The notes beneath the pieces are model-generated. The model saw nothing but the letters and a program-made list of their open reading frames with translations. It was not told the DNA's origin and made no database searches. Positions 8,019 through 22,899 of a DNA stretch of 64,000 bases are shown here, piece by piece; the first letter of the stretch is position 1, and each line of letters starts with the position of its first letter. A program made the position numbers and the translations under genes. Source of the stretch: an uncultured bacterium (GTDB taxonomy: Bacteria > Planctomycetota > UBA1135 > GCA-002686595); NCBI GenBank assembly GCA_943787795.1, contig CALSNU010000006.1:256001-320000 (forward strand). Reading direction: 5' to 3'.

Positions 8019-9227
8019 CTACAGTTCCTGAACGACCTGGTTCCAGCGTCGAACGAAGGCATCCCCGGGGGCGACCCCAAGGGCCTCCTCCGCGATCATT
8101 CGAAGCCAGTCGTCTGCCCTCAGCTGCGGCAGGCGCGCGTCCGGGGCTGGCGCCGCGAGCCCCAGCTCGAAGGCCCGCCGGAGGGTCCTTGAGGCCAAGA
8201 GGGCCAGGGGCCCTGGAGGCGCGCTGTCCACCGCCGCCTTTGCCACCACCAGCGTCTCTCCCACCTGCTCGAGCGCATCTTCAAGCCCGCTCCACGCTCC
8301 ACCCTGCTGAACCTCGTCCAGCAGCCACTCCGCACGGAGGATGGAGACAATGAGCGTTTCAATGCCCTCGAGGCCCTCGCTTCCCTGGTCGGTGGCCGCC
8401 GAGTCAAGCCCGGTGAACCTCAGCAACGCCGCGCCTGTTGGTGTCGAAGGCGCGGGCACATCTGCCTCCAACGCGGCCTTGACCTGTCCGAGTCGAGCCC
8501 GAGCGCCTTCGAAGTCTGCGTCGGCCTGCAGCCAGGCCTCGGCGTCATCCAGGTCCCACCAGTTGGAGCCGCCCACCACGACGAGAGGCTCCTCCTCCGC
8601 GGGGAACTCCTCATCCAGGGCCACCTCGGGTGCCGGATCGAGGGTGAAGCGCACGCCGCCCGGACCCGGCTCGGCGAGCAGGTGCCACGCCACGATGGGG
8701 ACGATGGTCACCTGGACCACCAGCGCCGCGACAGCGACCCGCAACAGCACCGAGTCGCGCAGGCGGTCCGCGCAGAACTCGAGCAGCACTCCCAGGTCAC
8801 CGCGGCGACGCAGATCCTCTCGCGTCGTCCTGGAGAGGACCCTCCGAACCACACGGCGAGCCTGTAGCTCTGAGCCCAGGGGCTGCCCCTGCCTCAGAGC
8901 ATCAGCGCACAGCGCCTTCAGCCCCTCCAACTCGGAGACCTCTTCGAGCTCTCGCGGGTCAACGAATCCGTCCAGGTCCGCGGCCCGCCCCGAACCGGAA
9001 CCACCGGCCTCGGAACCGCCGGCCTCGGAGCCCGACGCGCCTGCCATTGACGAGCCTGCCATTGACGAGCCTGTCATCGACGCGCCTGTCATCGACGCGC
9101 CCTTCCCTGACGCCGCAACGTCCGACCGCTCCCCCTCGAGGCCAGCTCCCCGCCCCTGGCCAAAGGCCCGGTCGATCGCGCGCTCCGTGGCCTCGGATTC
9201 TAGGCCCCTCTGATCTCCAGCGCTCAT
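8019..9227 (-). CDS. putative membrane-bound anti-sigma factor / hypothetical protein
   Basis: ATGA-coupled directly downstream of an ECF sigma; single central TM helix (LLRVAVAALVVQVTIVPIVAW). Confidence 0.55.
   Translation of the reverse strand: MSAGDQRGLESEATERAIDRAFGQGRGAGLEGERSDVAASGKGASMTGASMTGSSMAGSSMAGASGSEAGGSEAGGSGSGRAADLDGFVDPRELEEVSELEGLKALCADALRQGQPLGSELQARRVVRRVLSRTTREDLRRRGDLGVLLEFCADRLRDSVLLRVAVAALVVQVTIVPIVAWHLLAEPGPGGVRFTLDPAPEVALDEEFPAEEEPLVVVGGSNWWDLDDAEAWLQADADFEGARARLGQVKAALEADVPAPSTPTGAALLRFTGLDSAATDQGSEGLEGIETLIVSILRAEWLLDEVQQGGAWSGLEDALEQVGETLVVAKAAVDSAPPGPLALLASRTLRRAFELGLAAPAPDARLPQLRADDWLRMIAEEALGVAPGDAFVRRWNQVVQEL
9034..9101. repeat. in-frame 15-bp tandem repeat, 4.5 copies, encoding G(A/S)SM(T/A)
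   Basis: GACG(C/A)GCCTG(C/T)CAT(T/C) units at 9034, 9049, 9064 and 9079. Confidence 0.9.
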
Positions 9228-9871
9228 GCCTGCATCCCTCCGCTTGCGGAGCCACCGCGGGCGCGCAGGGCCTCCTCGACCCGCTCGCGCTCCTCGAGCG
9301 CCTCACGTACCCGGGCCACAGCGCTGTGCATTCTGGACTTCACCGTTCCAAGCGGGATCTCAAGCGCCTCGGCGATCGCCTGGTACGGGAGCTCCTCGAC
9401 CACAGCCAGGTCAAAGACCGCCCGGTGCCCCTCAGACAGCGACGCCACGGCGTCACGCACCACCTGGGCGCTCTCTCGCTGGAGCATCCCCTCGTCAGGC
9501 GCAGCGGGTCGACGATCCAGACGATGATCGGTGTGGACCTGGGCATCCGCGAGGTCTCCCGCAGGACCAGGCCCAGCGCCCCGCGTACGGCGCAGCCGAT
9601 CAATCCACACGTTCCTGGCCACGCGGAATGCGTAGCCAGAGAACTGCCCACGCACGTCATAGGACGTGGCGGCGGAGCTGGCGGCGGAGCGGAACAACTT
9701 GAGGAAGGTCTCCTGTGCGAGATCCTCGGCCTCGGCGCGCGAGGCGCCCAGGCGGACAAAGTAGGAAAGGAACGTGCGGGTTTCGGATCGAACGAAGTCC
9801 TCGAACGGGGCAGGCCTCCCGGCCCGAAGCGCCGCGAGGGGGTCCTGCGTGCCGTCCCAGGAGTCCTTCAC
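9224..9871 (-). CDS. ECF-type RNA polymerase sigma-70 factor
   Basis: Region 2 EAEDLAQETFLKL, ARNVWIDRLRR; region 4 LPYQAIAEALEIPLGTVKSRMHSA. Confidence 0.93.
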   Translation of the reverse strand: MKDSWDGTQDPLAALRAGRPAPFEDFVRSETRTFLSYFVRLGASRAEAEDLAQETFLKLFRSAASSAATSYDVRGQFSGYAFRVARNVWIDRLRRTRGAGPGPAGDLADAQVHTDHRLDRRPAAPDEGMLQRESAQVVRDAVASLSEGHRAVFDLAVVEELPYQAIAEALEIPLGTVKSRMHSAVARVREALEERERVEEALRARGGSASGGMQA

Positions 9872-10533
9872 GGCCCCTCAACGCCCGGGAGTGATCCCGG
9901 TTCACCACCTTCCTCGGAAACCCGCGCGGCCCCACCCCCAGCGGCCTCTTCGATGAGCTCGTCCGAGGGCCTGAGGGCTTCGATCAAGGCGTCAATCCTG
10001 GCCCCGAGCCCCCCATGGGGCCCCTCAGCCCCTCCTGACACGACGCCCTGCGCGCTCGATGGGGTCGCCTCGCCCGTTCGGCTCAGGGAGACCCAACGGG
10101 TCTGTGGCGTGTCGTGCCTCAGCTGGATGGCCAGCCTCGGGCTGGGGAGCCACCCCTCGATACGACCGGCCCACTCCACCACCGAGACCCCGTCGTCCCC
10201 GAGAAACTCGTCGGCCCCGTCCGCCAAGAGCGCCTTCTCGCGTCCCTCCATCCAGGCGTCGAAGTGGAACAGCGGAAGCCGCCCCCCGTCGTGCTGCTGC
10301 ATCAGGGTGTACGTCGGGCTCGCGACCCCGTCCTCGATTCCCAGCCCCCGGGCGAAGCCTCGAACAAAGGTCGTCTTACCCGCCCCCAGATCACCGTCGA
10401 GGGTCAGCACCAGGCCTCCCCAGGCCAGCTCCCCGAGCACCCGTCCAAGCTCCTCCGTCGCCTCGGCGGTGAGGCTCCTGAATCGTCGCGCCATGGCGCC
10501 ATCCTGACCTTCAGCCACGCGGAGCTCCACCAT
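9868..10533 (-). CDS. tsaE: tRNA threonylcarbamoyladenosine biosynthesis ATPase TsaE (YjeE)
   Basis: LDGDLGAGKTTFVRG, VASPTYTL, LFHFDAW, VVEW motifs; GGAGG upstream of ATG 10533. Confidence 0.93.
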   Translation of the reverse strand: MVELRVAEGQDGAMARRFRSLTAEATEELGRVLGELAWGGLVLTLDGDLGAGKTTFVRGFARGLGIEDGVASPTYTLMQQHDGGRLPLFHFDAWMEGREKALLADGADEFLGDDGVSVVEWAGRIEGWLPSPRLAIQLRHDTPQTRWVSLSRTGEATPSSAQGVVSGGAEGPHGGLGARIDALIEALRPSDELIEEAAGGGAARVSEEGGEPGSLPGVEGP

Positions 10534-11431
10534 GGATCCAACCTCCCTCCCCCGGACGCCACGGGGAGCGCCCTTCCGGGGAGCTGATCCAGAGCCCGCT
10601 CCCCTCGGTCACCACCCCGATCCGGCTCCACGGGGCGACCCCATCGGTCCCCAGCTTTTCCTCGGGAAGACAGGCCAGCAGCTCATGGTCCTCGCCGTCG
10701 TGGAACGCGTGAGCGAGCGCCGGGCGCCCGTCCACCGCGGCTGCGCGCTCGGCGTCCGGGTGAACGGGCACCGCCGACGCCTCCACCTCGATCGCGACCC
10801 CCGAGGCCCGAGCCATCCGGAAGAGATCCAGGGCGAGTCCGTCGCTGACGTCCATCATCGCCGTCGCGCCCGCGCGGACCAGGGCCCGGCCCTCGGGCAG
10901 CCGGGGCACTGGCCGCAGGTGCCGACCTGAGGCGAGGCTCCCTCCGAGCGGCCCCGTCACGACCACCGCCTGCCCGCGGAGCGCCCGGTCCCGACCCACG
11001 GGCAGGCCACCCCCCTCGAGGTATCCCAGGGCGCTCACCGTCAGGCCCGCCGGCCCGGGCGCCTGGGACAGGTCTCCTGCCACGAGCTCCGCGCCATGGG
11101 CTACGGCCGCGGCACGGGCACCGAGAATGACCTGCCGCAGGTCCTCCTCGGACCAGCTAGCCGGCGCCCGGACCGCGAGGGTGACCGCGCTCGGGACGGC
11201 CGCCGTCGCGGCGAGGTCAGAGAGGGTGCGGAGCACCGCCTTGGCACCTGCCGCTTGTCGGTCCACCTCAGGCGTGAAGTGGGTCCCCTCCACGCACTGA
11301 TCAGCGCAGATCACCGGCCTCCCCCCGAGCTCGGGCAAGACGGCCGCATCGTGTCCCCGGGAACCCGAGAGGCCCTGTGGCCAGGGCTGCTCCGCGAGCC
11401 AACGGTGCAGGTTGTCTTCGCTCCAGCTCAT
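10511..11431 (-). CDS. thiL: thiamine-monophosphate kinase
   Basis: GHDAAV, D..VEGTHF, LSDLAA, VTGPLGGS, MMDVSDGL, GEDHELL. Confidence 0.92.
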   Translation of the reverse strand: MSWSEDNLHRWLAEQPWPQGLSGSRGHDAAVLPELGGRPVICADQCVEGTHFTPEVDRQAAGAKAVLRTLSDLAATAAVPSAVTLAVRAPASWSEEDLRQVILGARAAAVAHGAELVAGDLSQAPGPAGLTVSALGYLEGGGLPVGRDRALRGQAVVVTGPLGGSLASGRHLRPVPRLPEGRALVRAGATAMMDVSDGLALDLFRMARASGVAIEVEASAVPVHPDAERAAAVDGRPALAHAFHDGEDHELLACLPEEKLGTDGVAPWSRIGVVTEGSGLWISSPEGRSPWRPGEGGWIHGGAPRG

Positions 11432-11440
11432 GCGTGCACC

Positions 11441-11821
11441 TCAATACACCCAGGCAAGGAGCACACGGCCCGTGACCGCTCGCCGATCCACCCAACCCTC
11501 CTGGGCCGAGTCGAATCCCTCGCACGCAGCGCAGTCGGAGCTGCACCAGATCCGCGCGCCGTCATCGCGACTCGCGGAGACGACAACGAGGTGTAGGTTC
11601 CCATCGGCGCCTCGAACCAGCACCGAATCCCCCGGCGCCACCTGCGCTGGTCGCAGATCCACCACCAGCCGATCTCCAGCCTCGAATCGCGCCACCGGGC
11701 AGCAGCGATCGGTCGGCACCGTGACCACCTCAAATCGGTAGCCAAGGTAGCCCACCCCAGCCAACGCGAGGACCATCGTCCAGCGGCGGAAGCGCCTCAG
11801 CCATCGACGCTGCGGGCTCAC
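11441..11821 (-). CDS. S24/S26 peptidase-fold (signal peptidase/SodX-like) protein lacking the Ser/Lys dyad, Cys-rich
   Basis: N-terminal TM helix; GD.LVV...PGD.VLV...W..SD....DS...G.V....V.GRV pattern; GTGA overlap with the thiE-like gene. Confidence 0.6.
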   Translation of the reverse strand: MSPQRRWLRRFRRWTMVLALAGVGYLGYRFEVVTVPTDRCCPVARFEAGDRLVVDLRPAQVAPGDSVLVRGADGNLHLVVVSASRDDGARIWCSSDCAACEGFDSAQEGWVDRRAVTGRVLLAWVY

Positions 11822-12570
11822 CGCTTCGCCTCATCGCTGGGCATGAACGTCGCCGCTGCAGCGGCCACCAGGTCATCCACCCTCTGGGGCAGGCCAGGGC
11901 TAGCCGCCCTCTCCTCCTCGGCGCGCACAGCGTCCGGCCCTGCCGCGTTGACCCCGGCCAGCTGACCCCAGACCGCGCCGATGGCAGCCGCGCCCGCGGC
12001 GCCTGTCCCGCGAAGGCGCGGGAGGGACGCCGGGTTCACGCCGCCGAGCGCCCACACCGGCAGCGGGCAGGCCGCGCAGAACTCCCGGAGCCCTTCCGGT
12101 CCGAGGATCCCAACCTCCACGTCCTTGGAGTGCGGCGCGAAGACCGGGGCGTGCATGGCGTAGTCCGCGCCCTCCCATCGATCTGGCCCGTCCCCCTGAT
12201 GGGTGGAGACTCCAAGGGTCACCTTGTCGCCGAGAACGCGGCGAGCCTCCGCCGCTGAGAGTGAGCCCCCCGCGAGGTGCACACCGTCTGCCGCCGTGGC
12301 GCCCGCGAGGTGAACGCGGTCGTGGATCCCCAGCCAGGCCCCCGGGGCCTCACGGTCCAGCAGCGCCCGCGCCTCAAGCGCCAACTCAAGGAACGGGCCG
12401 TCCTCAAGGAAAGGCTCGCGGAGCACCAAGCCGGACCCGCCGGCGCGGACGACCTCTCGGAGCCTGACCGGGAACGACGCGAGCTCATCCCCAGCGGCGC
12501 TCCCTGGCGCGCCCCGGGTGAGGGTGCCAGGCGAGAGGACCAGCATGCTCGGGGGCAACCTCCGATGCAT
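11818..12570 (-). CDS. thiE: thiamine-phosphate synthase ThiE/TenI family protein
   Basis: LREP, IHDRVHLA, ADGVHL, GVSTH, APVF..HSK, WALGGV; start re-picked to ATG 12570 (TGATG overlap with the upstream gene). Confidence 0.8.
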   Translation of the reverse strand: MHRRLPPSMLVLSPGTLTRGAPGSAAGDELASFPVRLREVVRAGGSGLVLREPFLEDGPFLELALEARALLDREAPGAWLGIHDRVHLAGATAADGVHLAGGSLSAAEARRVLGDKVTLGVSTHQGDGPDRWEGADYAMHAPVFAPHSKDVEVGILGPEGLREFCAACPLPVWALGGVNPASLPRLRGTGAAGAAAIGAVWGQLAGVNAAGPDAVRAEEERAASPGLPQRVDDLVAAAAATFMPSDEAKR

Positions 12571-14681
12571 CACTCCTCCAGCTCGATCAGGTACCCGAGG
12601 TCCCGGAACAGCGTCCGGTAACGGGCCAAGCTGGTCTTGCTCTTCAGCTGCACCGCGTTGCCATCGAGCTTGCCCTTGATGAACGGGCGCACCCCGGCGT
12701 CTCGCGCGAAGCGGCCCAGGATCCCCGAGTCTTGCGCCCTGATCACATGGTCCGCGCCGAGGAGCAGCAGCCCGGACTTCGACGCCCAATCACGGATCGA
12801 CTGGAGGACGTTTCGGGGCACCGGGGTACGCGCGTTGAAGGTCAGGATCTCCTTCATCTTGGTGAGCGTCATGCCCTCCACGAGCCCTCGATGGACGCTC
12901 TTCTCGTTGATCCTGAACTGCTTCAGCGCGCCGTCCTTCGTGCGCTCGGTGAACCGGTCCAGGTCGTGGGTCAAGACCGCGTCGTCCCCGTCAGAGAACA
13001 GGACGATCTCGAAGTCAGGCGTCACCACGAGGCGGCCGATCCCGAAGGTCTCCTCCTCGGGGGTGTCCACGCCGAGCACCCGCGCCCCGCTGCGGGTGAG
13101 CCGCATCGCCACCGGGTGCCCCTTGTCGTCGTAGCCGAGGTCAACGAGCCCCAGGAGGTACAGGCGCTTGCGAACCCACCCAACGAGGTTCCAGGCGAGC
13201 CGCTGGAGATCCTCCGTGGCCCCGGCGCCTGCAGCGCCCCTGGCGGCGATCATCTCATCCACCTCGAGCACAGCGAGCTGAGAGAGGTACGCGTTGCGAG
13301 CCAGGAACGGGAGGTACATCACGTCGTACCAGACCCCCACCTCCAGGCGCTTCATCAGCGTCGAGAGGATGCGGCGCATGGCCGGGTGGTGGATCGACTC
13401 ATGAGCCTCATCGAGCTCGAACGTGATGTACTCGAAGAGCCCGGCCAGCTTGGTGTCGAGGTCCTGGGACTCCCAGTCCCGGCCGGCGGCCGTGAGCTTG
13501 AAGGTCCGCTCGCCCGTCACCTCAATCAGCCCCACAGAGCGCGAGAACCTGAAGATGAACTGCAGCACCTCGCCGCGCTCCAGCTCTCGCCCCGGGTTCG
13601 GGATGAGCTCGGTGAGGATCCGCTTCTCGGTCGTCTTGAAGATCTCTCCCTTGACCGTGAAGCGCACCGCGTGATCGATGATGTAGGCGAGGAAGCGCGA
13701 GATGTTCGCCATCAGGTCCACGCCGAGCGCCGCCTCGTCGTGGGGCGCGTCCGGGTCGGAGGGCACGGCCACGCGCTTGAACCATGCCAGCGTGACCTCG
13801 TTGAACACGATCAACGTGTCATCCTCGTGCTGGATCCCATAGCGCTCCAGCTCCAACCTTGCGGTGGTGCCGACCAAGGACTCCTCCAGAATCTTCGCCC
13901 AGCGGCGCTGGTTCCAGTGGGGCAGGTCCGTCTCCATGCGCTCGAAGAAGCGCCTGGGGAGCATGCCGCCAAACTCGAGGACTGTCTTCCCGACGAGGTC
14001 CCGGAGCCCCTCCGGCAGACGCTCCACCCGGGCGACCGAGGCCGGCTCCTTGGCGTACATCTTGAACATCTCACGGAGCCGCGAGGGCGACATGGGACGC
14101 TCCACCTCGGGCCCCGCATACCGCTCGTCAAGGTGCCCCTTGAGCGTGATGGTGACCGCGTTGGCCCTGGCCTTCTCCGCGATCTCCTGGAGCAGGAGCG
14201 CGTCTGCAAGCTCTCCGGGGAGGGCGAAGTACTCCCCTTCTGGGTTCCCCTCGCGGAAGACCATCGCGGCGCGCTCGAGATCGCCGAGGACCTCCGCCTC
14301 CGAGGCCCCGCCGAGGATGGAGAGCACGGTCTTGCGCTCCATCCGGTGCCGTGGCGCCAAGAGCAAGGCCTCCACCACGGCCTGGTGGGTCTCTCCCATG
14401 GCCAGCTTGCGCTCGACGGCGCGCTCGGGCTCGCACATCCAGCCCTCGAGGGTGGTCCGCAGCTCCCCGACTCTTGCCGGCGATTCGCTGAACTCGCCGC
14501 CGGACCAGAACTCGAAGGGCTCCCGCAACTGGGCCTTCTTCAGCCGCTTGAGCGCCGCGCTGACGGAGAGATCTCCGCGCACGGAGCGGCGGGGGACCGT
14601 CCCACTGGAGGTCCTGTTCTGGCTGCGCACAGAACGCTTGGTCACACCAGAGGAGTCGGGTTCAGGGGATCGCGCCGTCAC
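12570..14681 (-). CDS. XPB-associated protein with C-terminal XPB/Ssl2 N-terminal-like (Helicase_C_3, p52/Tfb2-like) domain
   Basis: C-terminal LVVTPDFEI...L.RF.E......FRINEKSV..G...G......IL......VPRNV...IRDW aligns by eye with the N-terminus of the adjacent XPB; no Walker A; GTGA overlap with XPB. Confidence 0.8.
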   Translation of the reverse strand: MTARSPEPDSSGVTKRSVRSQNRTSSGTVPRRSVRGDLSVSAALKRLKKAQLREPFEFWSGGEFSESPARVGELRTTLEGWMCEPERAVERKLAMGETHQAVVEALLLAPRHRMERKTVLSILGGASEAEVLGDLERAAMVFREGNPEGEYFALPGELADALLLQEIAEKARANAVTITLKGHLDERYAGPEVERPMSPSRLREMFKMYAKEPASVARVERLPEGLRDLVGKTVLEFGGMLPRRFFERMETDLPHWNQRRWAKILEESLVGTTARLELERYGIQHEDDTLIVFNEVTLAWFKRVAVPSDPDAPHDEAALGVDLMANISRFLAYIIDHAVRFTVKGEIFKTTEKRILTELIPNPGRELERGEVLQFIFRFSRSVGLIEVTGERTFKLTAAGRDWESQDLDTKLAGLFEYITFELDEAHESIHHPAMRRILSTLMKRLEVGVWYDVMYLPFLARNAYLSQLAVLEVDEMIAARGAAGAGATEDLQRLAWNLVGWVRKRLYLLGLVDLGYDDKGHPVAMRLTRSGARVLGVDTPEEETFGIGRLVVTPDFEIVLFSDGDDAVLTHDLDRFTERTKDGALKQFRINEKSVHRGLVEGMTLTKMKEILTFNARTPVPRNVLQSIRDWASKSGLLLLGADHVIRAQDSGILGRFARDAGVRPFIKGKLDGNAVQLKSKTSLARYRTLFRDLGYLIELEE

Positions 14682-16552
14682 TCTACGTCGCCCTCGGGAA
14701 GGCTGGCTGGAGTCTGGGTGCCGGACTCCGCGGCGCCAGGAGCCGCATCGTCCGGATCCACGCCCTCAGCGTGGATGATTTCGTACGAGTACCCCTGCTC
14801 CGTCAGGAACAGCTGCCGCTTCTCGGAGAAGTCCTGATCCCGGGAGCCCAGGGTCACCACCGAGTAGAAGGTGGCGCCGCTCCCGTCCGATTTGGGTCGG
14901 AGGACTCGACCGAGGCGCTGAGCCTCTTCCTGCCGGGATCCAAAGGTCCCGGAGACCTGGATCGCCACCGAGGCGTCCGGGAGATCCACGGCGAAGTTGC
15001 CCACCTTCGAAAGCACGAGGAGCTGAAGCTCCCCGTCGCGGAAGGCGGTGTACAGGCGCTCGCGCTCGGCGTTGGGCGTGCGGCCGGTCAAGAGCGGCGC
15101 GTCGAGCTCCTGCGCGAGGGCACGGAGCTGGTCCAGGTACTGACCGATCACGAGCACCCGCTCGCCATCGTGCTGCTCGACCAGCGACCGGACCACCGGA
15201 AGCTTGGCAGGGTTCTCCGAGGCCCTGCGGAACTGTTGCCGGGGGGGCGCCGCCGCGTACGAGCGGCGGTCCGCGTCGGAGAACGCCACCCGAACCTCGA
15301 CGCAACGGGCCTCGGCGATGAACCCCTGCCCCTCGAGCACCTTCCAGGGCACGTCGTAACGCTTGGGTCCGATGAGGCAGAAGACCTCCTCCTCCTTGTT
15401 GTCCTCTCGGACCAGGGTCGCGGTCAGGCCCAATCGACGGCGGGCTTGGAGCTCGGCAGTGACGCGGAAGATCGGCGCAGGCAGCAGGTGGACCTCGTCG
15501 TAGACAACGAGCCCCCAGTTCTCTGACCGGAAGACCTCGAAGTGCTCGAACTCACCGGACTTCGATCTCCGCCAGGTCATCATCTGATACGTACTGATGG
15601 TGACCGGGCGTAGGTCCTTGGTCTCGCCGGTGTACTCCCCGACGTCTTCCGGCCGCAGTTCGGTCTTGTCCAGCAGCTCCTCCTTCCACTGACGAACGGC
15701 CACCGTGTTGGTGGTCAGGATCAGCGTCTTCGCTCCCACGAGGCTCATGACGGCCATTCCCGTGACCGTCTTTCCGGCGCCGCAGGGAAGGACCACCACC
15801 CCGCTCCCGCCCATCACCGTGCCCCCAGCGTGGAACGCCTCGGCGGCCCCGCGCTGATAATCACGGAGGCCAAAGGGCTTGCCCGAGAGCGTCACCTCCT
15901 TGAACTGAATCTCGAGGGGGTCCCCCTCCAGATAGCCCCCACGATCATCGACCGGGTAGCCGATGCGAATGAGCTTCTGCTTGAGGTCCCCGCGCTCGAT
16001 ACCCGACACGAACGCGCGCGGACCCTCGGGGCTCTCGACCACATTGCAAAGCGCTCGGAGGGCCTTGTGCGCCAGCACCTCTTCCAGGAGCCCCGCCTCG
16101 CCCCCGAGGAGCTCGAACTCGCCAGGGCCGTCTGTCGCACGCTCGATCCGCAGCAGGCCGTAGCGCCCGATCCAGCCGCGGATCTCGTCCACCACGCTCC
16201 CCGGCACGGGGACGCAGGCGTACCGAAAGAGCACCTCCTCGATCTCCGCGGCGCTGATCCCCACGGCCGCAGCGTTCCACACCGAAACGGGCGTCACGCG
16301 GTAGGTGTGGAGGTAGTCCGGGCTCTTCTCGAGTTCCGCGAACACGCTCAGCTCGTCTCGGGCAGCCGTGAAGAGCGGGTGCTCCTCGGTGACAGGGTTC
16401 CCGTCAGCGTCCCGCTCGGGGCGACCGTCGGCGTCGACCCGCGCCCGCACCGTGTGCAGCATCAGCGTCCGGTCGCCCTGGACGATGAGCGGATTGGTGG
16501 GCAGCGGCGCCTGGAGCGGCGCCCCGCCGTCTGCGAATCGAGCCTCCGTCAC
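14678..16552 (-). CDS. DNA repair helicase XPB/Rad25/Ssl2 (SF2)
   Basis: NPLIVQGD, ELEKSPDYLHTYR, LRDYQ, VLPCGAGKT, YDEVH, GLTATLVRED (RED motif), GSRQEEAQRLGRVLR. Confidence 0.95.
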   Translation of the reverse strand: MTEARFADGGAPLQAPLPTNPLIVQGDRTLMLHTVRARVDADGRPERDADGNPVTEEHPLFTAARDELSVFAELEKSPDYLHTYRVTPVSVWNAAAVGISAAEIEEVLFRYACVPVPGSVVDEIRGWIGRYGLLRIERATDGPGEFELLGGEAGLLEEVLAHKALRALCNVVESPEGPRAFVSGIERGDLKQKLIRIGYPVDDRGGYLEGDPLEIQFKEVTLSGKPFGLRDYQRGAAEAFHAGGTVMGGSGVVVLPCGAGKTVTGMAVMSLVGAKTLILTTNTVAVRQWKEELLDKTELRPEDVGEYTGETKDLRPVTISTYQMMTWRRSKSGEFEHFEVFRSENWGLVVYDEVHLLPAPIFRVTAELQARRRLGLTATLVREDNKEEEVFCLIGPKRYDVPWKVLEGQGFIAEARCVEVRVAFSDADRRSYAAAPPRQQFRRASENPAKLPVVRSLVEQHDGERVLVIGQYLDQLRALAQELDAPLLTGRTPNAERERLYTAFRDGELQLLVLSKVGNFAVDLPDASVAIQVSGTFGSRQEEAQRLGRVLRPKSDGSGATFYSVVTLGSRDQDFSEKRQLFLTEQGYSYEIIHAEGVDPDDAAPGAAESGTQTPASLPEGDVE

Positions 16553-19500
16553 CGGGCCTGCCCCCTCTTCTTCTTCGGCGGCGTCCCCGCCGTCTGCTGC
16601 CCCGCCGCTCGCTGCCCCGCGGGCGCGGTCTTCACGCTGGCCTTGACCTTCGTCTTGCGAGGTTGAGATCGCTTCTTGCCGGATGCGCCCTTGGCCACGC
16701 GGCGTCTTCCGGAGCCAGCCCCCGCGGCCCGCACCAGCCAGCGACCCGTCACCGAGGCCTTGTCTCCCGCGAGCTCCGCGGGGGTCCCTGAGGCAATGAT
16801 CTGACCGCCGGCCTCACCGCCCTCCGGGCCCAGTTCCACCAGTCGGTCGCAGATCTCCAGGAGCTCGGTGTGATGCTCGATGACGACCACGGCGTTGCCC
16901 CTTCGAACGAGCCGTCCAAGACAGCGCGCGAGGTGTTCGACATCCGTGGCGGCCAAGCCCGTGCTCGGCTCGTCGAGCACCAGCACGCTGCGCTGCGCGA
17001 CCCCGGAGGGAGAGTCCGCCCGCCACAGCTCCGAGGCGAGCTTGATGCGCTGGGCCTCGCCCCCGGAGAGGGTGGTCGAGGATTGGCCGAGCGACATGTA
17101 CCCCAGGCCGACGTCATGCAGCGTGGCGAGGATCCGCCGCGGCGCGGGGGCGGCCCCGAAGAATTCGAGGGCCTCGTCCACGCTCATGGCGAGCACATCC
17201 GCGATGGACTTGCCGCGGTAGCGCACCTCGAGGACCTCGGGCTGATAGCGAGACCCATCGCACTCTTCACAGGTGAGCCAGAGGTCCGAGAGGAACTGCA
17301 TCTCCACCAGGGTGGACCCGCGCCCGTCGCATCCAGCGCAGCGCCCCTTGGTGGAATTGAACGAGAAGTTCGAGGGCGTGAAGCCCTTCATCCGAGACTC
17401 GGGCGTCTTGGCGAACAGCTCCCGCAGATGCGGCATCAGCTCGACGTAGGTCGCCGGAACGCTGTGGGGCGTTCGCCCGATGGGCGTGGCGTCGACCACC
17501 GCGAGCCGCGTCCCTTCGGGCACCTTCGCGCTCTTCCACCGACCCGCAGCCGACTCCCCGCGTATCGCCGGGACGAGGGCATCCAGGACGAGGGTGCTCT
17601 TACCGCTCCCCGAAGGCCCACAGACCCCGAGCAGTTCCCCGAAGCGAACCTCCAGGTCCACCCCTCTCAGATTGTGCTCGCGGGCCCCCTTCAGCTGAAC
17701 CGTGGCGTCGCCTGACCCGAAGGCGTCCACGAGCGCCTGCTGGCGCGCCGCCTCCAGCTCAGCGTCCTCGCCCGCAGCGTCCACGGCGAGAATCGCCGCG
17801 AGATCGACCTCGCCCCGCAGGTACCGTCCGGTCCCAGAGGTCGGGTGAGCCCGGATCTCCTCCGGCCCACCTGCGGCCACCACCTCGCCGCCGAGGACTC
17901 CCGCCCCCGGTCCCATGTCAACAATGTGGTCGGCCCGCCCCATCAGCTCGGCGTCGTGCTCCACCACCAGCACCGTGTTCCCCGCGTCGCGCAGGTCTTC
18001 CAACGCGCCGGCCAGCTGGTCGATATCCCGCGGGTGGAGGCCCACCGTCGGCTCATCGAGGACGTAGCACACCCCCACGAGCTCCGACCCGAGGCTCGCT
18101 GAGAGCCGGACGCGCCGCGCCTCTCCACCGGAGAGCGTCGAGGTTGAACGATCCAGGGACAGGTAACCCAGTCCGACGCGCTCCAGGAGCGCGAGCCGGG
18201 AGCGCAGCTCGCTGAGGACCTGGTCCATGGCGGACGCCACGTTCTTGCGGAGCTTCAGCGCGCCCAGCCAGAGAAGGGCCTCCTCGACGGTCATGCCGAG
18301 CACCTGCGGGATTCGCTTTCGGCCCACGAGCACGCTCCGGAAGGCTGGCGCCAGCCGCTCCCCGTGGCAGACCGGACAGGTCTGCCGGGTCATCACGCGC
18401 TCCAGAATCCCGGCCCACTCGGGGTCGTCCGTCTTGGCGTGCCAGGCGTCGATGTGTCCGCAGAGACCGCTCCACTCCGACGTGTACTCCTGGTCGAAGT
18501 CGAAGTTGCGCATCTGCTTGGAGACGTGCACCTCGTAGCTCCCCCGCGCCCCAGCGCCACGCAGCAGGAGCGCTTGGTGCTTGGCGCTGAGCTTCTCCAG
18601 GGGCTTGTCGAGGTTCACCCGATGCGACCGGGCGACGGTCCGAAGCAAGGTCTCGTAGTAGCCCTTGCCCTTGACCAGGTACCGGCCCAGCTTGCCACCT
18701 ATGGCCCCGTCGGTGAGAGGGCGCGTGGGGTCCGTGATGAGCTTCTCGGGGTCCGCCCGGAAGATCGACCCCAGACCGTCGCAGCTCTGGCAGGCCCCGA
18801 CGTGAGTGTTGAACGAGAAGTGACGTGGCTCGAGCTTGGCCCCGAGCTGGAAGCCGCAGGTGGTGCAGGCGCCGTGGGTGCTGTATTCGATCCGCGCTCC
18901 GCCCTTGACCAGCACGGACACACGGCCGTGGGACGCCGCTGCCGCCTGCTCCACGGCGTCCGCGATTCGAGCCCGTGCCGCGGTCGAGAAGCTCACGCGA
19001 TCGACCACGAGGTCCACCGCCTCGGCGTCATCAAAGGGGAGCGCCTCAGCGTCCAGGCGGTACTCCTCACCGTCGATCATCACCCTGACAAACCCGGCCG
19101 CCGTCCAGTTGGGCAGCAGGGCTCGCAGGCGCTCGGGCACGGACTCTGCGCTGTTGCCCAGCTTCACGGCGTGGCCGAGGACCGGCGCGAGGATCCATCC
19201 CTTGGGCTTCCCGTCCAGTTCGCCCGTGGTCTTGAGGATCTCACGCGTGACCTTGCCAGGGTCCGCAGGACGCAGGGGCTCGCCGTGCTCGGGGCACCGG
19301 GCTTCGCCAGCCCGGGCATAGAGCACCCGCAGTTGATCGTGGATCTCCGTCGTCGTGGCCACCGTGGACCGCGGATGCCCCCGCACCGTGGAGGCCTCCA
19401 CCGCGACAGAGGGGCCGAGGCCCTCGATACGCTCCACCGGCGGCTTGTCCTTGGTCCCCAGGAACTGTCGCGCGTAGGTGGAGAGGGACTCCACGAAGCG

Positions 19501-22500
19501 GCGCCGCCCCTCGGTGTAGATCGTGTCCAGCGCGAGGGAGGACTTCCCTGAGCCGGAAGGCCCTGTGATCACCGTGAGTGACCCGCGCGGAATAGCGACG
19601 TCCACGCCCTTCAGGTTGTGGGTCCTGGCGCCCTGGACGAGCAGCTCCGTCGGCTGGCGCACCCCGCGCGAGCGCGGCAGCGGGCGGGTCTTCAGGCGCC
19701 GACGGTCCGTGAGCTCACGCAGCGCCTCGCCCGTGGGCGTGTCCTGCACAGCGAGCTCCTCCGGGCTCCCGCATCCGAGCACCCGGCCGCCACCCTCGCC
19801 GCCCTCCGGGCCGAGATCCACCAGGTGATCCGCGGCCTGGATCAGCTCCAGGTTGTGCTCGATCACGAGCACCGTGTGCCCCTTGTCCACCAGGCGCTGC
19901 AAGGCGCCGACCAGCCGCCCGACGTCCTCCATGTGAAGCCCGGTCGTGGGCTCATCCAGGAGGAAGAGCGTGTGCCCGTTCGGCCGCCGCGACAGGTGTG
20001 TCACGAGCTTGATGCGCTGCGCCTCCCCACCCGAGAGCGTCGGCGAGGGCTGGCCGAGGGTCAGGTAGCCGAGCCCCACATCCATCATCAGGCCGAGGGG
20101 CCGGCGCAGCAGAGGGTGGTCCTCGAACAGCTCGTGTGCCTCCTCCACCGTCATGGCGAGCACGTCGGCGATCGACCGCTCGCGGTAGCGAACGTCGAGG
20201 GTCTCCTCCTGGAAGCGCCGCCCGCCGCACTCCTCACAGGGCACGGTGACCGGGCTCAGGAACTGCAGCTCCATCACCTTCACGCCCGCCCCGAGGCACT
20301 CCTCGCAGCGGCCGCCGGCCACGTTGAAGCTGAAGCGTGACTTGGTGTACCCCCGCATCTTCGCCTCCGCGAGGCTCGCGAAGAGCTCGCGGATCGGCCC
20401 CAGAATCTTGGTGTAGGTGGCCGGGTTCGATCGCGGCGTTCGCCCGATCGGCGACGCGGTGATCGAGATCATCTCATCGATGTGCTCGAGGCCGAACACG
20501 GCGTCATGGGGCCCGGGATCCGGCGTCTCCCGCTCGAGGTGCCGGAGCACGGCACGCTTGAGGGTACGCTCCACCAGCGTCGACTTGCCCGACCCCGAGA
20601 CGCCGGTCACGGCGGTCAATGTGCCCAGGGGAATGCGAGCGTCGACCCCCTTGAGGTTGAACGCGGAGGCGCCGCGGATCTCGAGGAACTCGCCGCTGCC
20701 GGAGCGCCGCTCCTCGGGCGCAGGGATCACAATCTCCCCGCGCAGCAGCCGGCCTGTCGGCGTGTCAACGCCGGACCTCGCGACCTCGGAGGGCGGTCCT
20801 GAGGCGACGATCTCCCCGCCGCGGCTGCCCGCCGAAGGTCCCACGTCGATGAGCCAATCTGCGCTCCTGAGGGTGGACTCGTCGTGCTCGACGATCACGA
20901 CGCTGTTCCCAGCGTCACGCAGGTTCGCGAGCGCCCCCAGCAGCCGGTCATGGTCCCTCGCGTGGAGGCCAATCGAGGGCTCATCCAGCACGTAGAGCAC
21001 CCCCTGGAGCCCCGCGCCAAGCTGCGCGGCGAGGCGGATTCGTTGCGCCTCCCCTCCGGAGAGCGTGTCCGCACCCCGGTCGAGCGTCAGGTACCCAAGC
21101 CCCACATCCACGAGGAACCGCACCCGCCGCTCGATCTCGAGCAGTAGGTCACGGGCGATGCGCCCCTGGCGCTGAGTCGTCTCCGCCGAGCCCAGGCGCT
21201 CCACGAGCTCTGAGACCGGTCCTGACGTCAGATCCGCGAAGCGCAGCCCGCCGAAGCGGACGTGCCGGGCGAAGAGGTTGATCCGTGAGCCGTCGCACTC
21301 CGTGCAGACCTGCTCGGACAGGAAGCGCTCCACCATCTTTCGGCGCGAGCCCTTCGCCAGGGCGCGCCGGAGGTTCCCCAGGACGCCGTGGAACACTCGG
21401 TTCCAGCTGCCCTTGCCACGCGAACGCTGACCGTTCCACTTGAACGCGTCCCGATAGCGCTTCTCCCCCGTGCCCTCGAGCACCGCCCTTCGCGCTCCTC
21501 GAGACATCTCGGCCCAGGGCGTGTCCAGGTCGAAGCCCGCCGACTCACCCACCCGCTCCAGGAACTCGAAGTCCACGTTTGGGAAGAGCAGCCCGTTCCC
21601 TGCGGCCTTGGTGACCGCGAGGGCTCCCTCTCGCAGGGTGAGTGCCGGGTCGCGGATCACCGCCGCCTCGGACGGCGCCTTCAGCACGCCGAGCCCACCG
21701 CACGCGCCGCATGCCCCGTGCGGTGAGTTGAAGGAGAACAGTCGGGGCTCAAGCTCAGGGAGCTCACGACCGGTCTCCGGGCAGACCCGCTGGGTGGACC
21801 AGGTGCGCTCTCCCTCCTCACCGATCGCAACCACCTCGCCGCCACCCAGGTCCAGCGCTTGCTCAACGGCGTCCCGCAGGCGACCGGGCTCGCCTGCGTC
21901 GGGCTTGAGCCGGTCCACAATGACCTCGACCGTGTGACGCTTGTAGCGCTCGAGCTCCGGCGCGTCCTCCAGTCGAACGATCTCTCCGTCCACCCGCGCG
22001 CGCACGAAGCCGCGGCGCTGGAGGTCCTGGAAGAGCGCGCGGAACGAACCTTTGCGGTCCTTGATCAGGGGCGCCGCCACGACGAGCTTGCGCCCTGCGT
22101 GGGCGGCGAGCAGCTCCTGGACCACCGCCTCTGGTGTCCGGGACTCCACCGGCAGATCGCACCAGGGGCTGTGCGCGACTCCGGCCCGTGCGTAGAGGAC
22201 TCGGAGGTGATCCACGACCTCCGTCAGCGTCCCGACGGTGGAGCGATTGCCACGGGCGATGCTCTTCTGATCCACGGCGATGGCCGGGGAGAGCCCCTCG
22301 ATCGAGTCCACGTCCGGCTTCTGCAAGCCGCCGAGGAACTGGCGGGCATAGGCGGAGAGCGTCTCGAGGAAGCGCCGCTGCCCCTCGCGGAAGAGCGTGT
22401 CGAAGGCGAGGGAGGACTTGCCGGAACCGGACACGCCGGTCACGGCGACGAGGGCCCCCCGAGGCAGCGTCACGTCCACCGAGCGCAGGTTGTTCTGCCT

Positions 22501-22569
22501 CGCGCCCCGGATCACGATCTCGCCCGCGTCGGACCCGGAAGTCGTGGGAGCTGCGGGTCGAGAAGGCAT
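16549..22569 (-). CDS. uvrA: excinuclease ABC subunit A, tandem-duplicated (about 2000 aa, four ABC ATPase domains)
   Basis: Four Walker A motifs ([36 protein letters not shown]); four LSGGEA(Q/R)R signatures; two EG(Q/R)RRF(L/V)E.LS.YARQFLG motifs; CxxC Zn modules; start re-picked to ATG 22569. Confidence 0.96.
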
Positions 22570-22690
22570 CGGGTCGTGGGCGTGCTGGGTGGAAGCGCGA
22601 GGCAGCGCGCAGGTCGTAAGGGCGCGCCCCGCCGACTTGTCGACGAGGGAGGGGCCCCGGAGACTTGCCTCGGGCGTACTGAAGCCGATC

Positions 22691-22699
22691 AGGATACCA
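22691..22699 (-). promoter_or_regulatory. putative extended -10 (TGGTATCCT) for the uvrA operon
   Basis: TGnTAnnnT on the minus strand about 120 nt upstream of the ATG, downstream of the ahpC terminator. Confidence 0.35.
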
Positions 22700-22806
22700 G
22701 CCGGCGTCGTGGGCACCAGCCGCCCGAGGCCGGCGAAATGCCGCAGCAGCCCCCTCAGCCGACCCTGCAGCCGACCCTGCCCGACTCAGCCCCACCCCGC
22801 AGGGAA

Positions 22807-22853
22807 CAAAATGGACGGGTCCCGGCCCCTTCTTGGGAACCCGGACCCGTCCA
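22807..22853 (-). terminator. intrinsic terminator downstream of ahpC
   Basis: Inverted repeat TGGACGGGTCC/GGACCCGTCCA followed on the minus strand by TTTTG. Confidence 0.7.
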
Positions 22854-22899
22854 CCGGGTCAAATCGGCCCCTGGTGGGTCCGATGGGCCTCTCCTTCGC

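Follow-up and report, generated by a model that had tools for sequence, protein, structure and literature searches.

A predicted XPB-p52 module encoded beside a tandem UvrA in planctomycetes

In a 64,000-nucleotide stretch of DNA (the window: contig CALSNU010000006.1 of assembly GCA_943787795.1, positions 256,001 to 320,000) from an uncultured planctomycete (GTDB lineage Planctomycetota; UBA1135; GCA-002686595), a double-length uvrA, the helicase gene xpb, and a gene encoding a putative XPB partner follow one another (Table 1). This feature is real and conserved, comprising a predicted bacterial XPB-p52 module, akin to that of transcription factor IIH (TFIIH), that is probably co-expressed with a tandem UvrA likely to act in the normal way. 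An earlier note on this DNA had proposed that the tandem UvrA hands lesions to XPB and its partner. Its three genes, all on the minus strand, and both of its GTGA overlaps proved real, as did the four ATPase domains that it placed in one UvrA chain, four full sets of ATP-binding cassette (ABC) motifs being present. No paper on a bacterial p52-like XPB partner or a uvrA-xpb operon was found in open-licence full text, and the accessible portions of PMC13024598 and PMC6222260 make no mention of a bacterial p52 homolog. Genomes (G), contigs (C), loci (L), and families (f) carry our own labels, the genome of the window being G000.

Table 1. Features of the uvrA-xpb-partner region, with positions in the window
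Feature	Position	Strand	Remarks
Tandem (double-length) uvrA	16549..22569	-	2006 aa from ATG 22569; two complete class I modules
UvrB-binding domain, module 1	21805..22152	-	aa 140-255; equivalents of R176/R206/D219 and R216/E222 retained
Insertion (DNA-binding) domain, module 1	21337..21663	-	
UvrB-binding domain, module 2	18892..19278	-	aa 1098-1226; more diverged, same residues kept
Insertion domain, module 2	18433..18747	-	
GTGA stop/start overlap, uvrA-xpb	16549..16552	-	
xpb helicase/translocase gene	14678..16552	-	624 aa
GTGA stop/start overlap, xpb-partner	14678..14681	-	
p52/Tfb2-like XPB partner gene (predicted)	12570..14681	-	703 aa
Partner winged-helix region	13068..14564	-	about aa 40-538; matches N-terminal half of p52 domain by domain
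Partner clutch domain	12777..13046	-	about aa 546-635; predicted XPB-binding surface
Partner C-terminal domain	12573..12770	-	with clutch aligns to XPB residues 70-293, not p52's p8-binding domain
thiE-like gene	11818-12570	-	downstream of partner
thiL-like gene	10511-11431	-	downstream of partner
tsaE	9868-10533	-	downstream of partner
Extended -10-like element, TGGTATCCT	22691..22699	-	downstream of GTG 22716
GC-rich hairpin, then short U run	22811..22855	-	after peroxiredoxin gene; z -3.3

Results

The XPB partner is p52-like in predicted fold

XPB scored above the curated NF045503 cut-off (792.6 vs 610), and its motifs were intact, with an N-terminal Helicase_C_3 domain followed by Walker A (LPCGAGKT, residue 255), DEVH (352), RED (381), and motif VI (545). 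The only Pfam match of the partner was a C-terminal Helicase_C_3 domain, which was found in 69/69 partners. Rv0862c, the neighbor of XPB in M. tuberculosis, is presumably also a Helicase_C_3 protein. For the clutch domain, a profile search matched XPB and Tfb2 chains. Pfam Tfb2 (PF03849) gave no match to the window partner, and 6/69 partners matched it weakly (best E 6.5e-4).

The structure model of the partner, built from a 79-sequence alignment, had a predicted local distance difference test (pLDDT) score of 88.4. Its top 17 Foldseek matches were TFIIH chains of 289-452 residues (best E 7.6e-10, ~540 columns), which we assigned to p52/Tfb2 from chain length and the title of 6trs (p52). Against p52, the full-length partner gave a template modeling (TM) score of about 0.2 and a root-mean-square deviation (rmsd) of about 22 Å, and a model of the 404 C-terminal residues repeated the match with a TM score of about 0.3 and an rmsd of about 13 Å, the alignments being collinear. 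In a VIA search of 48,161 chains, XPB and p52 were within the top 4. First rank went to XPB (8ebt_A, Z 14.9, rmsd 9.4, 156 aligned), where residues 70-293, covering the N-terminal domain and the DRD region, aligned with positions 545-701 of the partner model. Matches to p52 followed at Z 11.1, 10.8 (6tru, rmsd 12.7, 235 aligned), and 8.7 (6gym, rmsd 3.6, 152 aligned), those to 6tru and 6gym falling in the winged-helix region, and generic winged helices ranked below p52 at Z of about 8 or less; these domain-level rmsd values apply to the full-length partner model only. The modeled domains of the partner and their order thus match p52, while their packing differs, and we predict that the partner is a bacterial counterpart of p52/Tfb2.

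Complex prediction was run with XPB 17-596, partner 300-703, and 69-row alignments. The interaction prediction score from aligned errors (ipSAE) was 0.65, compared with 0.00 for the best of three controls; the mark applied to this score was reached by 116/157 solved pairs and 2/215 mismatched pairs. Runs shared at least 94% of contacts, with a partner pLDDT of at least 79. The predicted interface places XPB 23-81 and 569-592 against partner 546-631, which is the clutch geometry described for TFIIH in the accessible text of PMC6422496. There, the p52 clutch and the N-terminal domain of XPB form a pseudo-symmetric pair that also restrains RecA2, and earlier work on the likeness between clutch and XPB is cited. 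XPB and its partner are therefore predicted to form a TFIIH-like heterodimer through contact of the clutch with the XPB N-terminal domain; together with the p52-like fold matches, this model lends support to the TFIIH-like core that had been suggested from sequence.

The resemblance to TFIIH XPB-p52 (Ssl2-Tfb2; PDB 6NMI, 8EBS, 6TRS; PMC6422496) takes in an XPB with N-terminal domain and RED motif, winged-helix domains that precede a clutch with the XPB N-terminal fold, and the predicted contact of that clutch with the XPB N-terminal domain and RecA2. Unlike TFIIH, the pair is encoded by two bacterial genes in one operon, and the window partner is longer than p52 (703 aa), with an extra N-terminal helical/winged-helix part and an XPB-like C-terminal domain. 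Actinobacterial XPB from M. tuberculosis belongs to the same NCBIfam family, NF045503, but was studied without a partner as far as the accessible sections of PMC3353954 describe; these sections also state that p52 homologs had not been found in bacteria by 2012.

With a profile of the partner as query, 368 cluster representatives matched at E values of 1e-30 or lower. Named homologs of the partner were mostly from Planctomycetota. The ESM Atlas returned unnamed or Helicase_C_3/TP_0021_N clusters only. The N-terminal part of the partner resembles PF27388 TP_0021_N clusters, which are common in spirochaetes and are perhaps a diverged partner family of spirochaete XPB. A frameshift, through error or decay, splits the partner in G040 (L013:4118-6952). 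In G043 (L169, G043:C9:8000-26000), a second xpb copy stands ahead of frames of 919 and 855 aa, one after the other, for clutch-domain proteins; G050, G100, and G210 likewise have two xpb copies. Open frames of 2300-2600 aa around xpb (G034, G035, G037, G050) were rejected as UvrA-XPB fusions; because UvrA and XPB occupy different frames, they are alternative frames in GC-rich DNA.

The tandem UvrA retains both UvrB interfaces

UvrA contains four Walker A, four LSGGE, and four Walker B motifs, giving two intact ABC sites per module, and TIGR00630 matches it twice. Identity between module 2 and module 1 is about 30-57%, depending on the region. Both UvrB-binding domains could be aligned to solved UvrA. 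We take R176, R206, and D219 (Geobacillus numbering) to be UvrB-interface residues. Their equivalents were mapped through the 2r6f alignment, assuming a 20-residue tag. Across the xpb-linked UvrAs with an insertion domain, R176, R206, and D/E219 were kept in both modules of all 23, and R216 and E/D222, which the accessible text of PMC3025350 names as the UvrB surface of UvrA, were kept in 23/23 and 17/23, respectively.

In common with bacterial UvrABC systems built on class I UvrA (classes I and II are defined in the accessible text of PMC3167621), the window UvrA has complete ATPase, insertion, zinc, and UvrB-binding modules, and its genome carries uvrB, uvrC, mfd, lexA, and recA. It differs in that two UvrA protomers are fused and diverged, that uvrA is coupled to xpb instead of uvrB/uvrC, and that the first zinc site of module 1 (22134-22173, minus strand) is without its cysteines, reading HSPWC rather than CxxC; the corresponding motif of module 2 is CPEHG. 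The model PRK00635/NF001885 (1809 positions), which we take to be the chlamydial-type double-length UvrA, likewise holds two UvrA modules in one chain. The window UvrA departs from it in scoring 1235.7, under the cut-off of 3054, in having both UvrB-binding domains intact, and in its link to xpb.

The uvrA frame is open further upstream to GTG 22716 (open reading frame span 16549-22716, minus strand). Given the -10-like element downstream of that GTG, ATG 22569 is probably the start. The hairpin after the upstream peroxiredoxin gene is probably a terminator, in which case uvrA would head its unit. A promoter/terminator scan returned 0 sites, calling neither the -10-like element nor the hairpin. 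Across the 15 kb as a whole, four metatranscriptomes from one study yielded dispersed contigs of low depth; such contigs are no evidence of transcription, strand, or a single transcript and were not used.

UvrB, UvrC, and Mfd are encoded elsewhere in the genome

The only matches over cut-off to uvrB (C3:382569, 1000.5 bits) and uvrC (C3:386532, 455.6 bits) in the genome, which is 84.9% complete, sit 2 kb apart on contig C3, so neither gene is in the window. The reported lack of UvrB and UvrC therefore holds for the 64 kb, but not for the genome, where both are canonical. Domain 2 of UvrB aligned to solved UvrB (3uwx_B, E 7.6e-43). A 1427-aa open frame around uvrB was rejected as a gene; it overlaps two opposite-strand genes. 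No single-length uvrA was found in this genome, and a second double-length UvrA (G000:C2:93350-98062; L009:7309-12273) is of class II type, having the two insertion domains but lacking UvrB-binding domains. The tandem UvrA of the window would thus be the only UvrB-loading UvrA found in this genome.

Among relatives, uvrB was present in 60/61. The mfd search covered 80 of 102 intended genomes and found the gene in all 80, 79 of them over cut-off, and XPB was accordingly rejected as a replacement for Mfd. In the genome of the window, a span of about 1 kb in mfd (G000:C4:543452-546770, L170) contains several frameshifts that disrupt the gene, which is likely a sequencing error since all seven same-genus genomes searched carry an unbroken mfd.

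In planctomycetes, the link to uvrA is old but not obligatory

Linkage was counted from match coordinates in relatives. Directly before xpb, uvrA was found in 33/36 family relatives (two could not be determined from the matches listed and one had no xpb match) and in 16/24 other order members (two, G042 and G049, were unlinked and five were at contig edges). In the remaining order member, G052 (96% complete), the tandem UvrA is intact, but neither xpb nor the partner had a match. Across the phylum, xpb was found in 52/121 genomes. For other planctomycete classes, 40 loci with longer flanks were taken from 47; uvrA was directly upstream of xpb in 12 of these 40 (8 families), and another 4 had it within 3-8 kb. 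A full-length partner was found in 29, a clutch-only match in 8, and none in 3. The unrelated downstream genes thiE, thiL, and tsaE (9868..12570), part of the same conserved block, served as the synteny control; thiL and tsaE were linked through most of the order and stayed in 6/40 loci of the other classes. Outside the phylum, uvrA was found at 0/53 xpb loci, 41 of which had 4 kb or more upstream, and a clutch-type partner stood beside xpb in 22/53, mostly in Bacillota but also in Thermodesulfobacteriota, Latescibacterota, and two spirochaetes. Since the pair occurs in several phyla without uvrA, XPB and its partner form a stable unit. On the XPB tree (69 rows), the uvrA-xpb link changes at least seven times. 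The synteny thus reaches far beyond this genome into several planctomycete classes. Among planctomycetes, linkage to uvrA is old and persists somewhat further than that of the thi genes, but it is not obligatory.

An (A/G/T)TGA stop/start overlap at the uvrA-xpb junction recurs in most of the linked relatives listed, which argues that the GTGA overlap is not due to chance alone. The partner and thiE are joined by a TGATG overlap; because this unrelated gene overlaps the partner too, an overlap is no specific sign of a complex. The gene run has at its end a gene for an extracytoplasmic function (ECF)-type sigma factor (8019-9871, minus strand), which overlaps tsaE and is followed by one for a 402-aa protein without a Pfam match, a possible anti-sigma factor.

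Many xpb-linked UvrAs are shortened

Both insertion domains were missing from 20/43 xpb-linked UvrAs scored (families f2, f5, f9, and f26), and the shortened proteins of f2 and f9 were also without the ATPase motifs of module 2. The UvrB-binding triad was kept in 19/20 shortened proteins for module 1 and 17/20 for module 2, and E/D222 in just 6/20 for each module. Insertion-domain state changes four times on the XPB tree, on which one labeled row (L150) was too short to test. Long branches kept UvrA trees from placing the shortened proteins, whose orthology is based on gene position. Genomes of f2, f5, and f26 have a complete UvrA elsewhere. In f9 (L028:8898-12905, L030:767-4798, L151-L162), a tandem UvrA of roughly 1330 aa is coupled to xpb, keeps both UvrB-binding domains, and is the only UvrA match in 15/16 genomes; uvrB was found in 3/3, uvrC in 5/5, and mfd in 16/16 f9 genomes tested. 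Insertion-less UvrA modules also occurred away from xpb in 7/30 control genomes (split matches), two of them without an xpb match, so that loss of the insertion domains is less convincing as a specific marker of linkage to xpb. Among unlinked or class II-type UvrAs of the same order, insertion-domain loss was seen in 0/20.

In a second tandem-UvrA clade (f2, f4, f5, and f8; L033-L044), whose UvrA is divided between two genes in f2, module 2 no longer has the UvrB-binding triad, which suggests an asymmetric dimer that loads one UvrB. In-frame stops, through error or decay, split the xpb-linked uvrA in G114 (L115:3370-8217) and G058 (L022:4080-10706).

Discussion

We consider that the operon would encode two separable machines, one a single-chain UvrA pseudo-dimer and the other XPB with its p52-like partner. 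There is, in our estimate, an even chance that UvrA loads UvrB and UvrC cuts, with the co-expressed XPB-p52-like pair serving as an accessory motor that uses ATP to open damaged DNA. The UvrB that the pseudo-dimer would likely load is the ordinary one from contig C3; this UvrB would verify lesions, and UvrC would cut. By analogy with TFIIH, the clutch would stimulate the XPB ATPase, the winged helices would tether the pair to DNA or to some other factor, and XPB would translocate on duplex DNA, melting it locally. Gene order suggests that translational coupling yields UvrA and the motor together, in which case both would act on damaged DNA in one cell; direct UvrA-XPB contact would not be required.

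Several observations weigh against this reading. The repair role of the pair is drawn only from XPB homology and the uvrA neighborhood, and within the class thiL and tsaE show about as close a linkage as uvrA. The upstream regions of uvrA, lexA, recA, uvrB, and uvrC had no palindromic (LexA-type) box in common. The overall fold match to p52 is loose (TM 0.2-0.3, rmsd 12-22 Å, 10-15% identity), the winged helix is a widespread fold, and the C-terminal domain of the partner is XPB-like rather than p8-binding. The complex score may stem from likeness to the TFIIH complex already solved. Neither p8/Tfb5 nor XPD/DinG (DEAD_2) had a match in this incomplete genome, p44, p34, and p62 not having been searched.

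A less probable but serious alternative is that uvrA and the xpb-partner pair are mere neighbors in an old housekeeping block (uvrA-xpb-partner-thiE-thiL-tsaE) and that the task of the motor has no connection with UvrA; it might, for instance, open DNA during transcription or to restart replication. The overlap of thiE, of the same kind as those of the other genes, and the linkage of thiL/tsaE through most of the order are what this would predict, as are the repeated changes of the link on the XPB tree, the absence of uvrA from the 53 xpb loci outside the phylum, and the planctomycetes that carry xpb and show a single-length UvrA only (G144, G155, G177, G213, and G125). However, other classes keep uvrA directly upstream in 12/40 loci (and 4 more within 3-8 kb) vs 6/40 for thiL/tsaE, and shortened UvrA copies remain coupled to xpb in f2, f5, f8, and f26 despite a complete UvrA elsewhere. 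It is improbable, in our view, that lesions or stalled RNA polymerase are instead detected by the XPB-p52-like motor, which would then recruit UvrB along with the co-translated UvrA, in the manner of Mfd, so that UvrA's own lesion sensing would become dispensable. In E. coli, the insertion domain and proximal ATPase matter less in Mfd-coupled than in global repair (accessible text of PMC3025350), and an insertion-less UvrA would suit such a recruiter; both insertion domains were lost in about four separate events among the xpb-linked UvrAs, the UvrB-binding triad largely survived, and the f9 protein is nearly always the sole UvrA. Yet Mfd, present in 80/80 genomes including 16/16 of f9, could explain insertion loss alone, E/D222 is mostly lost from the shortened proteins, and insertion-less modules occur away from xpb, even in two control genomes without an xpb match. 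Because of Mfd and these unlinked modules, recruitment stays a minority reading. That it amounts to a TFIIH-like route into UvrABC, in which the motor recruits single-chain UvrA with UvrB and all f9 excision repair depends on the recruiter, is likewise doubtful.

Least credible is the idea of the earlier note that the tandem UvrA passes lesions straight to XPB and its partner, which would replace UvrB as the DNA opener. Translational coupling, linkage across several classes, and the predicted TFIIH-like core are in keeping with it. The genome nevertheless has uvrB, uvrC, and mfd, and uvrB in 60/61 relatives and uvrC in 5/5 f9 genomes leave XPB little place as a UvrB stand-in. Independence from UvrB is likewise contradicted by interfaces that appear intact on both the UvrA and the UvrB side, those of UvrA in both modules of 23/23 insertion-bearing xpb-linked proteins. 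No nuclease gene was present among the window neighbors scanned, and tandem UvrA persists without xpb (G052, G101, and G116). A double UvrA with intact UvrB-binding domains and a UvrB encoded elsewhere, one of the points that the note had itself named as refuting its proposal, is what was found in silico. We therefore regard a handover in which XPB and its partner replace UvrB as very unlikely.

Read as an accessory motor beside UvrABC or otherwise, the pair bears on a protein that has so far been without a known partner or role in bacteria, and the p52-like protein is the likely missing activator of bacterial XPB. With the widespread predicted XPB-p52-like heterodimer, bacterial XPB can be tested as a motor made of two proteins. 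The heterodimer is also relevant to the origin of the TFIIH core, and the link to uvrA provides the first functional lead for bacterial XPB. The f9 lineage, whose sole UvrA is stripped of its lesion-sensing domains, offers a natural test of recruiter-dependent repair; if that route were true, the bacterial pair would be a two-protein model of the TFIIH motor.

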